DNA of 64,000 bases. It comes from Escherichia coli (GTDB lineage: Bacteria; Pseudomonadota; Gammaproteobacteria; Enterobacterales; Enterobacteriaceae). Where the stretch lies: assembly GCF_048403405.1 (NCBI RefSeq), contig NZ_CP183129.1, one strand, 5' to 3'. Every line of letters starts with the position of its first letter. Position 1 is the stretch's first letter. Position numbers and translations under genes: made by a program. Positions 3,296-11,856 of this stretch are shown here, one piece after another. The notes beneath the pieces were generated by a model that saw nothing but the letters and a program-made list of their open reading frames with translations, ran no database searches and had not been told where the DNA came from.

Positions 3296-3487
3296 CTAAC
3301 GTTGTACCGGTGATTCGACGGAGAGTGTGGATTGCTGAGCTTCTTTTTTGCTCTGATGGTGCTGCCATGCACCGACGGACGAGTAGATAAAACGGCCAAA
3401 GAAGAAGATAAAGCTGATGAGCAGTACGATACGGGTCATGCGACTGTTAAATCGGTGTCGTTTTCGCATACTGGTTGCCTGACTCAC
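3296..3487 (-). CDS. yfgG: small membrane protein YfgG
   Basis: 63-aa track ORF matching E. coli YfgG with a single TM (IVLLISFIFFFGRFIY). Synteny. Confidence 0.85.
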   Translation of the reverse strand: MSQATSMRKRHRFNSRMTRIVLLISFIFFFGRFIYSSVGAWQHHQSKKEAQQSTLSVESPVQR

Positions 3488-3697
3488 AAAAGGTTCCTTG
3501 AAGTATGTCCCACGCTGTGGACGGTACTTACATTAAGGCACAACAGGACAAAATGGTCAATTCTTCGTTATGTAAAAAAGCGTCAGTGGATACATATTTT
3601 AATGTTATGGAAGTTAATTTAATTATTTACAATGATGATGTAATAATGATGAATTAACATGATAAACGTAATAATTCATTAATCAGGGTTATTTTGT

Positions 3698-3711
3698 TTG
3701 ATATATATCAA
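3698..3711 (+). promoter_or_regulatory. FNR-type binding site (TTGAT-N4-ATCAA) of the pdeF promoter
   Basis: Perfect palindrome TTGATatatATCAA, about 134 bp upstream of the pdeF ATG. A TAGAAT -10-like hexamer at about 3733-3738 places the site near -41.5 (class II geometry). Confidence 0.6.
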
Positions 3712-3838
3712 TTGGAACTTTCATATGACACTTAGAATCAATGCTCTCTATAGTGATGAATAATCATCATTCGAAGTCAGGTGGGATGCCTGTCTGAATA
3801 CACCTCCTTCAGGATGTGGGGGATTCTGCTGAGCATCT

Positions 3839-6082
3839 ATGAAACTGAATGCAACTTATATAAAAATACGTGATAAATGGTGGGGGCTTCCGCTGTTCCT
3901 GCCTTCTTTAATCTTGCCCATTTTCGCCCACATTAATACTTTCGCGCATATTTCTTCCGGTGAGGTTTTTCTCTTTTATCTGCCTCTGGCTCTGATGATC
4001 AGCATGATGATGTTTTTCAGCTGGGCGGCATTGCCAGGGATCGCCTTAGGGATTTTTGTCCGCAAATATGCAGAGCTGGGTTTTTACGAAACGCTCTCAT
4101 TAACGGCTAATTTTATTATCATTATCATTCTCTGTTGGGGCGGTTACAGGGTCTTTACTCCCCGGCGTAACAACGTTTCACATGGTGATACCCGTTTAAT
4201 TTCCCAGCGTATATTCTGGCAGATTGTGTTTCCTGCAACGCTGTTTCTGATACTTTTCCAGTTTGCTGCGTTTGTAGGATTACTGGCGAGCAGAGAAAAT
4301 CTGGTCGGCGTCATGCCTTTTAATCTCGGGACCTTAATCAATTATCAGGCCTTACTGGTGGGCAATCTGATTGGTGTCCCGCTGTGCTACTTCATCATTC
4401 GTGTAGTGCGAAATCCGTTTTATTTACGTAGTTATTATTCGCAATTAAAACAGCAGGTTGATGTCAAAGTCACCAAAAAAGAGTTCGCACTCTGGCTACT
4501 GGCATTAGGTGCTTTACTGCTGCTGTTATGCATGCCGTTAAATGAAAAAAGCACAATTTTTAGCACCAACTATACCTTGTCATTATTGCTGCCCCTGATG
4601 ATGTGGGGAGCGATGCGCTATGGTTATAAGCTGATTTCGCTGCTCTGGGCGGTCGTGTTGATGATCAGCATCCACAGCTATCAAAATTACATTCCCATTT
4701 ATCCTGGCTATACCACGCAGCTGACCATAACCTCCTCCAGTTATCTGGTATTCTCTTTTATTGTCAATTATATGGCTGTACTGGCAACCCGTCAGAGAGC
4801 GGTTGTCAGACGCATTCAGCGGCTTGCGTATGTGGACCCGGTAGTTCATCTGCCAAATGTTCGCGCCCTGAATCGCGCGTTGCGTGATGCCCCCTGGTCT
4901 GCGCTTTGTTATTTACGCATCCCTGGCATGGAAATGCTGGTTAAGAACTATGGCATCATGCTGCGGATTCAATACAAGCAAAAACTTTCTCACTGGCTGT
5001 CACCCTTGCTGGAACCGGGTGAGGATGTTTATCAGCTTTCGGGTAACGATCTCGCGCTGCGACTGAATACAGAATCGCACCAGGAGCGCATTACCGAACT
5101 GGATAGCCATCTCAAGCAATTTCGTTTCTTTTGGGATGGAATGCCGATGCAACCGCAGATTGGCGTCAGTTACTGCTATGTGCGCTCGCCAGTGAATCAT
5201 ATCTACCTGCTGCTGGGAGAGCTAAATACGGTCGCCGAACTTTCCATCGTGACCAACGCCCCGGAAAATATGCAGCGTCGCGGGGCAATGTATTTGCAAC
5301 GCGAATTGAAAGATAAAGTCGCGATGATGAATCGACTACAGCAGGCGCTGGAACACAACCATTTTTTCCTGATGGCCCAGCCGATTACCGGTATGCGTGG
5401 CGATGTCTACCATGAAATTCTTCTGCGCATGAAAGGTGAGAATGATGAACTGATCAGCCCCGACAGCTTCTTGCCGGTCGCGCACGAATTTGGTTTATCG
5501 TCGAGTATCGACATGTGGGTCATTGAGCATGCGCTGCAATTTATGGCTGAAAACAGAGCGAAGATGCCCGCTCACCGTTTTGCCATTAATCTGTCGCCAA
5601 CCTCGGTATGTCAGGCTCGTTTTCCCGTTGAAGTCAGTCAGCTGCTGGCTAAATATCAAATTGAAGCGTGGCAACTTATTTTTGAAGTCACCGAAAGTAA
5701 TGCTCTGACAAATGTTAAGCAGGCGCAAATCACCTTGCAGCATCTTCAGGAATTAGGCTGCCAGATTGCGATTGATGATTTCGGCACCGGCTACGCCAGC
5801 TATGCGCGGCTTAAAAATGTGAATGCCGATCTGCTTAAAATTGACGGCAGTTTTATCCGCAATATTGTGTCAAATAGTCTGGATTATCAGATAGTGGCGT
5901 CGATTTGCCACCTGGCGCGAATGAAGAAAATGCGGGTAGTGGCAGAGTACGTTGAAAACGAAGAGATCCGCGAGGCGGTGCTCTCTTTGGGGATCGATTA
6001 TATGCAGGGTTATCTTATTGGTAAGCCGCAACCGTTAATTGATACGCTGAATGAAATCGAACCCATTCGCGAAAGTGCCTGA
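3839..6082 (+). CDS. pdeF: cyclic-di-GMP phosphodiesterase PdeF (membrane N-terminal domain, degenerate GGDEF, EAL)
   Basis: 747-aa track ORF recognised as YfgF/PdeF. Multi-TM N-terminus. EAL-domain motifs (DDFGTGYASYARLKNVNADLLKIDGSF). Confidence 0.93.
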   Translation: MKLNATYIKIRDKWWGLPLFLPSLILPIFAHINTFAHISSGEVFLFYLPLALMISMMMFFSWAALPGIALGIFVRKYAELGFYETLSLTANFIIIIILCWGGYRVFTPRRNNVSHGDTRLISQRIFWQIVFPATLFLILFQFAAFVGLLASRENLVGVMPFNLGTLINYQALLVGNLIGVPLCYFIIRVVRNPFYLRSYYSQLKQQVDVKVTKKEFALWLLALGALLLLLCMPLNEKSTIFSTNYTLSLLLPLMMWGAMRYGYKLISLLWAVVLMISIHSYQNYIPIYPGYTTQLTITSSSYLVFSFIVNYMAVLATRQRAVVRRIQRLAYVDPVVHLPNVRALNRALRDAPWSALCYLRIPGMEMLVKNYGIMLRIQYKQKLSHWLSPLLEPGEDVYQLSGNDLALRLNTESHQERITELDSHLKQFRFFWDGMPMQPQIGVSYCYVRSPVNHIYLLLGELNTVAELSIVTNAPENMQRRGAMYLQRELKDKVAMMNRLQQALEHNHFFLMAQPITGMRGDVYHEILLRMKGENDELISPDSFLPVAHEFGLSSSIDMWVIEHALQFMAENRAKMPAHRFAINLSPTSVCQARFPVEVSQLLAKYQIEAWQLIFEVTESNALTNVKQAQITLQHLQELGCQIAIDDFGTGYASYARLKNVNADLLKIDGSFIRNIVSNSLDYQIVASICHLARMKKMRVVAEYVENEEIREAVLSLGIDYMQGYLIGKPQPLIDTLNEIEPIRESA

Positions 6083-11659: not shown

Positions 11660-11856
11660 GACTGCTTTACACAACCTTTTTGCACGTCTTTTCCCCAGGC
11701 GCGCGGCGAAAGAATACTTGTACCAGGGCAAAGGATCGTTTTCGGATGGAATAATCTTCTTCCATAACCATTTGAATACAAAATAACTTTATCTCAAACC
11801 GTTATCATTTTGACTAAAGTCAACGAAAATAATATTGCCGCCTTGAAGAAAGGAGG

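Follow-up and report, generated by a model that had tools for sequence, protein, structure and literature searches.

What does the perfect inverted repeat upstream of pdeF (yfgF) in Escherichia coli do, which of the two divergent genes does it serve, and through which promoter geometry? We examined these questions in a 64-kb stretch of DNA from a non-K-12 lineage of E. coli, the whole of which is referred to below as the window. It is highly probable, in our assessment, that a class II FNR-dependent sigma-70 promoter drives pdeF and that the palindrome is its activator site. The FNR site of the pdeF promoter is already known, the link having been published in 2010 and corroborated through genome-wide ChIP in 2013. 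What is new here is that the class II architecture, as read from aligned promoters (box, 21 bp, TAnAAT), has been retained in four or more enterobacterial genera. The site couples c-di-GMP turnover, and thereby motility, surface properties and peroxide tolerance, to the sensing of oxygen by FNR. The two genes concerned are as follows.

3839..6082, plus strand: pdeF (yfgF) coding sequence, 747 aa with MASE1 and EAL domains, annotated pdeF in E. coli genomes and b2503 in MG1655

3296..3487, minus strand: yfgG, divergent from pdeF, start codon at 3487, DUF2633

Pfam placed MASE1 at residues 15-320 and EAL at residues 498-730 of the PdeF protein (3839-6079). No GGDEF domain passing E 0.001 was found between the two, which agrees with the published degenerate and inactive GGDEF domain of PdeF (PMC3718329). 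Downstream of pdeF, ppx and ppk follow on the minus strand. GC content in the region 3500-3800 is 27-30%. The 1 kb around the palindrome has a counterpart of at least 95% identity in 5424 of 5426 complete E. coli genomes. In MG1655 the palindrome lies at NC_000913.3 2629066-2629079, and regulatory feature annotation around the pdeF promoter is absent from that record. The plus-strand open reading frame at 3505..3657 (50 aa, WP_000017552.1, 'hypothetical protein') is probably not a real gene. PGAP annotates it in numerous E. coli genomes, MG1655 not being among them, and Pfam gave no match. Only Escherichia has it intact; in Enterobacter, Phytobacter and Kluyvera there is either a broken version or none.

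The palindrome itself can be described as follows.

3698..3711, no strand (palindrome): FNR box TTGAT-ATAT-ATCAA, centre 3704.5, perfect consensus

The 14-mer TTGATATATATCAA occupies 3698-3711 and matches the consensus TTGAT-N4-ATCAA at 10 of its 10 specified positions. When both strands of the window were scanned with TTGATNNNNATCAA, this was the sole match with zero mismatches, so that the perfect FNR palindrome with exact half-sites recognised in the earlier note is confirmed. One perfect FNR site per 64-kb window is not rare at that scale, the expectation being 0.11 and at least one such site arising in 11 of 100 dinucleotide shuffles; with up to two mismatches allowed, the window held 39 sites against 31 expected. 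Within the yfgG-pdeF intergenic region (351 bp, 34% GC) the perfect palindrome is nevertheless locally unusual. A perfect site appeared there in 41 of 20000 mononucleotide shuffles, and a site with at most one mismatch in 102 of 3000.

These frequencies bear on the idea that the palindrome has arisen by chance in AT-rich DNA, or that it is the site of another regulator such as CRP, and has no role in FNR regulation. The idea draws on the single perfect match per 64 kb, which is not significant alone, but it fits poorly with the rarity of perfect sites in the intergenic shuffles, with the fixed position of the box in four genera and with the published ChIP occupancy by FNR (PMC3688515). As for CRP, the half-site is of the FNR type, bases 3697-3701 reading TTTGA and not TGTGA, and no CRP-like 22-mer in the intergenic region reached 13 of 22 matches. 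An origin by chance or a CRP site can hardly be credited. Elsewhere in the window, TTGACTAAAGTCAA at 11810-11823 is the reverse complement of the upp/purM site TTGACTTTAGTCAA, a predicted FNR site found under a ChIP peak without an effect on expression (Myers 2013, PMC3688515). Fur-like matches in the yfgG-pdeF intergenic region reached 12 of 19 positions at most and none was convincing.

In class II FNR promoters (narG, nirB, dmsA, yfiD/grcA and the synthetic FF-41.5) an FNR dimer near -41.5 takes the place of the -35 element and activates in an oxygen-labile manner. The elements that would give the pdeF promoter this geometry are listed here.

3733..3738, plus strand: -10 hexamer TAGAAT, 21 bp 3' of the box, called the -10 element in PMC3718329

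3746, plus strand: putative transcription start (+1), placed from the geometry and from the 'FNR box at -41.5' in PMC3718329

With a start at 3746, where the base is C, the centre of the box would fall at -41.5 and TAGAAT at -13 to -8. No usable -35 hexamer was found 16-18 bp upstream of TAGAAT, where the candidates AATTGG, ATTGGA and CAATTG match TTGACA at 0-2 of 6 positions. From the box centre at 3704.5 to the A of the pdeF ATG (3839) the distance is 134.5 bp, in accordance with the separation of about 134 bp given in the earlier note. Its further proposal that TAGAAT is placed for class II activation also held, given the 21-bp gap, the position at -41.5, the weak -35 and a spacing that is kept across genera.

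Another promoter can be drawn over the same stretch.

3725..3754, plus strand: sigma-70-like promoter ATGACA-18-TATAGT, from a consensus scan, predicted start near 3761

FNR might accordingly bind the box and yet have little effect, pdeF being transcribed mainly from this overlapping and activator-independent promoter. Its hexamers score 10/12 in the consensus scan and are the same as those given for yfgF in a genomic SELEX peak obtained with RNA polymerase alone (Shimada 2014, PMC3946193), although in that study they represent a sequence prediction inside the peak and not a mapped start. The lack of an FNR-dependent change of wild-type yfgF in glucose minimal medium (Myers 2013, PMC3688515) would also fit. 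However, neither ATGACA nor TATAGT occurs in the promoters of Enterobacter, Phytobacter and Kluyvera, where the box, the 21 bp and TAnAAT persist. The literature furthermore has FNR-dependent anaerobic activation together with a box at -41.5 (PMC3718329 and RegulonDB curation), and an oxygen dependence of yfgF that emerges upon removal of H-NS (PMC3688515). Relative to a start near 3761, the box would be centred at about -56.5, where neither class I nor class II sites are usually placed. We consider it unlikely that the overlapping hexamers are the main source of pdeF transcripts, and retain the class II promoter at TAGAAT as the preferred reading.

Conservation of the box within the species was assessed by a census with a 32-nt query in which every 28-nt seed word spans the entire box, exact matches of 28 nt or more being scored. 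The box was exact in 5372 of the 5426 complete E. coli genomes, with one match in each and always on the chromosome. The 65-nt core promoter was identical in 2695 genomes and had 95-99% identity in 2708. Among the variants inspected, the two common polymorphisms (3716 and 3741) fall in neither the box nor the hexamer. In about 47 genomes, coverage of the yfgG-pdeF intergenic region is below 80%.

Insertions of IS1 were seen in the pdeF promoter region of three strains. In strain L73 the element (L004, 1537-2305) is located between the box and TAGAAT with a 9-bp target duplication, GGTACTTTC, corresponding to window positions 3714-3722, and should uncouple pdeF from FNR. In ECA64 (L005, about 669-1437) and CB6837 the IS1 follows window position 3668, some 30 bp 5' of an intact box. 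The insertion in L73 and those in ECA64 and CB6837 are independent.

Beyond E. coli, a single scan of species-representative genomes gave 14 full-length pdeF orthologues including the upstream region. These loci belong to cryptic Escherichia clades, E. whittamii, Enterobacter asburiae, two Phytobacter species, Kluyvera (six loci) and one further Enterobacteriaceae genome; the peptide patterns of the scan missed the loci of Salmonella, Citrobacter and Klebsiella. The yfgG-pdeF-ppx synteny was kept in all 14, with intergenic lengths of 341-354 bp. A box with 0-1 mismatches (TTGAT/TTGAC, N4, ATCAA/GTCAA) was present 124-144 bp 5' of the ATG in 14/14 loci, and in every one of them the gap from the box to TAnAAT (TAGAAT or TAAAAT) was exactly 21 bp while the gap sequence itself diverged. 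Box and hexamer stand out as conserved islands in the alignment of the full intergenic region. The TTGAC half-site variant occurs in most Kluyvera loci, as reported for Salmonella. That box, 21-bp spacing and TAnAAT have all been kept across genera independently supports the predicted class II geometry.

The alignment also contains the predicted promoter of the divergent gene.

3560-3555 and 3538-3533, minus strand: yfgG promoter TTGACC-17-CTTAAT, predicted by Shimada 2014 (PMC3946193), hexamers invariant across four genera

The palindrome could in principle serve yfgG, or both genes as a bidirectional FNR site, since it is symmetric and situated in a divergent intergenic region, and since yfgG had a +O2/-O2 ratio of 0.45 in the wild type (Myers 2013, PMC3688515, Table S12). 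Yet the invariant yfgG promoter would start transcription near 3526, roughly 178 bp away from the box centre, which argues that the box belongs to pdeF and not to yfgG, and the fixed 21-bp spacing is to a -10 hexamer on the plus strand. Of the two divergent genes, the same study names yfgF as the estimated target, with one known TSS that comes from Lacey 2010 (PMC3688515, Table S9), and a term search of its supplements did not find yfgG among the FNR-dependent operons of Table S8. A role of the palindrome for yfgG is thus very improbable, and pdeF is the gene that we assign to it. Upstream of the yfgG promoter, an AT-rich block at about 3594-3625 is likewise invariant across the four genera.

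How firmly FNR is linked to pdeF expression can be judged from the literature on yfgF; a search for FNR under the gene name pdeF returned nothing. For the E. coli yfgF promoter, Lacey et al. 2013 (PMC3718329) give an 'FNR box at -41.5 (TTGAT--ATCAA ...)' and a '-10 element (TAGAAT ...)' and assign it to class II. As related there with reference to Lacey, Partridge and Green 2010 (Microbiology 156:2873), FNR activates yfgF and expression is maximal anaerobically, and a RegulonDB curation paper carries the entry 'FNR, yfgF, Activator, Anaerobiosis'. Binding in vivo is documented by an FNR ChIP-seq/ChIP-chip peak at yfgF/yfgG (Myers et al. 2013, PMC3688515, Table S5), under which the same 14-mer is the predicted FNR site. 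Its PatSer/PWM score of 16.08 is among the highest of the Table S6 rows examined (PMC3688515).

In anaerobic wild-type cultures on glucose minimal medium, this FNR peak was accompanied by no FNR-dependent change in yfgF expression (PMC3688515, Table S9). When hns and stpA were removed, the FNR peak average at yfgF rose from 0.35 to 1.68 (PMC3688515, Table S7), and yfgF was oxygen-dependent in the hns- stpA- strain with a +O2/-O2 ratio of 0.23 (PMC3688515, Table S11). H-NS is also marked in the yfgG-yfgF spacer by Shimada et al. 2014 (PMC3946193). The effect of FNR on yfgF expression is therefore dependent on conditions, being absent in the wild type in glucose minimal medium and evident from the ratio of 0.23 without H-NS and StpA. 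The earlier note had referred to a reported anaerobic, FNR-dependent expression of pdeF, and this stands in that activation has been reported (PMC3718329, RegulonDB curation) but does not extend to the wild type in glucose minimal medium (PMC3688515).

From these elements the following course of events may be proposed. Without oxygen, dimeric [4Fe-4S] FNR would bind the TTGAT-N4-ATCAA palindrome centred at -41.5, there overlapping the spot at which a -35 element is lacking. By analogy with model class II promoters, FNR would recruit and activate RNA polymerase at TAGAAT by direct contacts, and transcription from near 3746, the exact base being deduced from the geometry, would give a leader of about 93 nt followed by pdeF. 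With oxygen, FNR would lose its cluster and leave the DNA, and the pdeF promoter, which has no -35 element, would turn silent. We infer that H-NS limits the access of FNR to this AT-rich region, so that the size of the FNR effect would vary with growth conditions. Such a limit may explain why an effect went undetected during exponential growth in minimal medium and was seen under other conditions and in the hns- stpA- mutant, and relief from H-NS may be the cause of the condition-dependent induction. Induction has been reported for stationary phase, for rich medium and for a strain lacking hns.

Nothing of substance separates the promoter in the window from that of yfgF in E. coli K-12 (Lacey 2010, as restated in PMC3718329), which is the same locus with the same box, -10 hexamer and position at -41.5. 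Compared with the K-12-like strain TUM22764, one base differs between box and hexamer (3716, A in the window and T in that strain). The yfgF promoter of Salmonella Enteritidis and Typhimurium (STM2503) likewise has an FNR box at -41.5 and a -10 element in a class II arrangement, but with a TTGAC half-site where E. coli has TTGAT and with TACAAT in place of TAGAAT (PMC3718329). Among model FNR promoters, the boxes of nirB, narK and yfiD are perfect or near-perfect palindromes too, like that of pdeF, to judge from entries of Table S6 (PMC3688515). The pdeF promoter nevertheless deviates from the model class II FNR promoters in several respects. No NarL/NarP heptamers are recognisable in the yfgG-pdeF intergenic region, which is AT-rich and reported to be bound by H-NS, and FNR showed no effect on it during exponential growth in glucose minimal medium (PMC3688515). 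The product is moreover a signalling enzyme, whereas the products of the model promoters are respiratory.

The transcript that this promoter is predicted to produce begins with a leader part of which is conserved.

3746..3838, plus strand: pdeF 5' untranslated leader, about 93 nt, with a conserved block at 3774-3838

In the alignment over four genera, the block 3774-3838 is better conserved than the rest of the intergenic region, and CAGGU.GGAUGCCUG (3778-3792) and GCAUCUAUG (3833-3841) are invariant. When single sequences from the four genera were folded, GGAUGC (3784-3789) repeatedly paired with GCAUCU (3833-3838) directly 5' of the AUG, and within this pairing lie a variable helix and an inner hairpin with GGA always in the hairpin loop. 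An alternative, invariant leader hairpin likewise puts GGA in a loop, and the GGA motifs in predicted hairpin loops are those at 3784-3786 and 3812-3814. RNAalifold on the leader gave only invariant pairs. In a three-helix structure drawn by hand, 84% of cells were paired, whereas sliding the partners gave 27-52%; its covariation was weak.

No Rfam family scored above noise in 3400-4000. A literature link between the pdeF leader and CsrA was not found, and neither yfgF nor pdeF is mentioned in the CsrA CLIP-seq supplements for E. coli and Salmonella, whose conditions possibly did not include those under which pdeF is expressed. The conserved leader element is unannotated and appears to be undescribed before. 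As a tentative possibility, to which we give rather low credence, pdeF may be gated at a second level on top of the FNR promoter, the modelled leader acting as a translational switch or as a CsrA-type site.

Some further elements were noted around the box. About 15 bp 5' of it, CGTAATAATTCATTAAT at 3667-3683 resembles a PmrA/BasR-type direct repeat, matching the consensus CTTAAT-N5-CTTAAT at 10 of 12 positions; such a match is weak in AT-rich DNA. According to a 2025 study, BasR binds the yfgF promoter (EMSA) and represses it about 2.3-fold in an avian pathogenic strain. On the downstream side, positions 3750-3770 form an 81% direct repeat of ATAATGATGAATTAACATGAT (3643-3663), which lies upstream of the FNR box. 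This stretch includes a palindrome, TGATGA-ATAA-TCATCA, at 3754-3769, or about +9 to +24 of the predicted transcript, that folds as a hairpin near the 5' end. The palindrome is specific to Escherichia, and Kluyvera and Enterobacter have unrelated GC-rich hairpins (CCGCG...CGCGG) at the same place. The hairpin at 3754-3769 could serve to stabilise the mRNA at its 5' end, or the palindrome could act as an operator.
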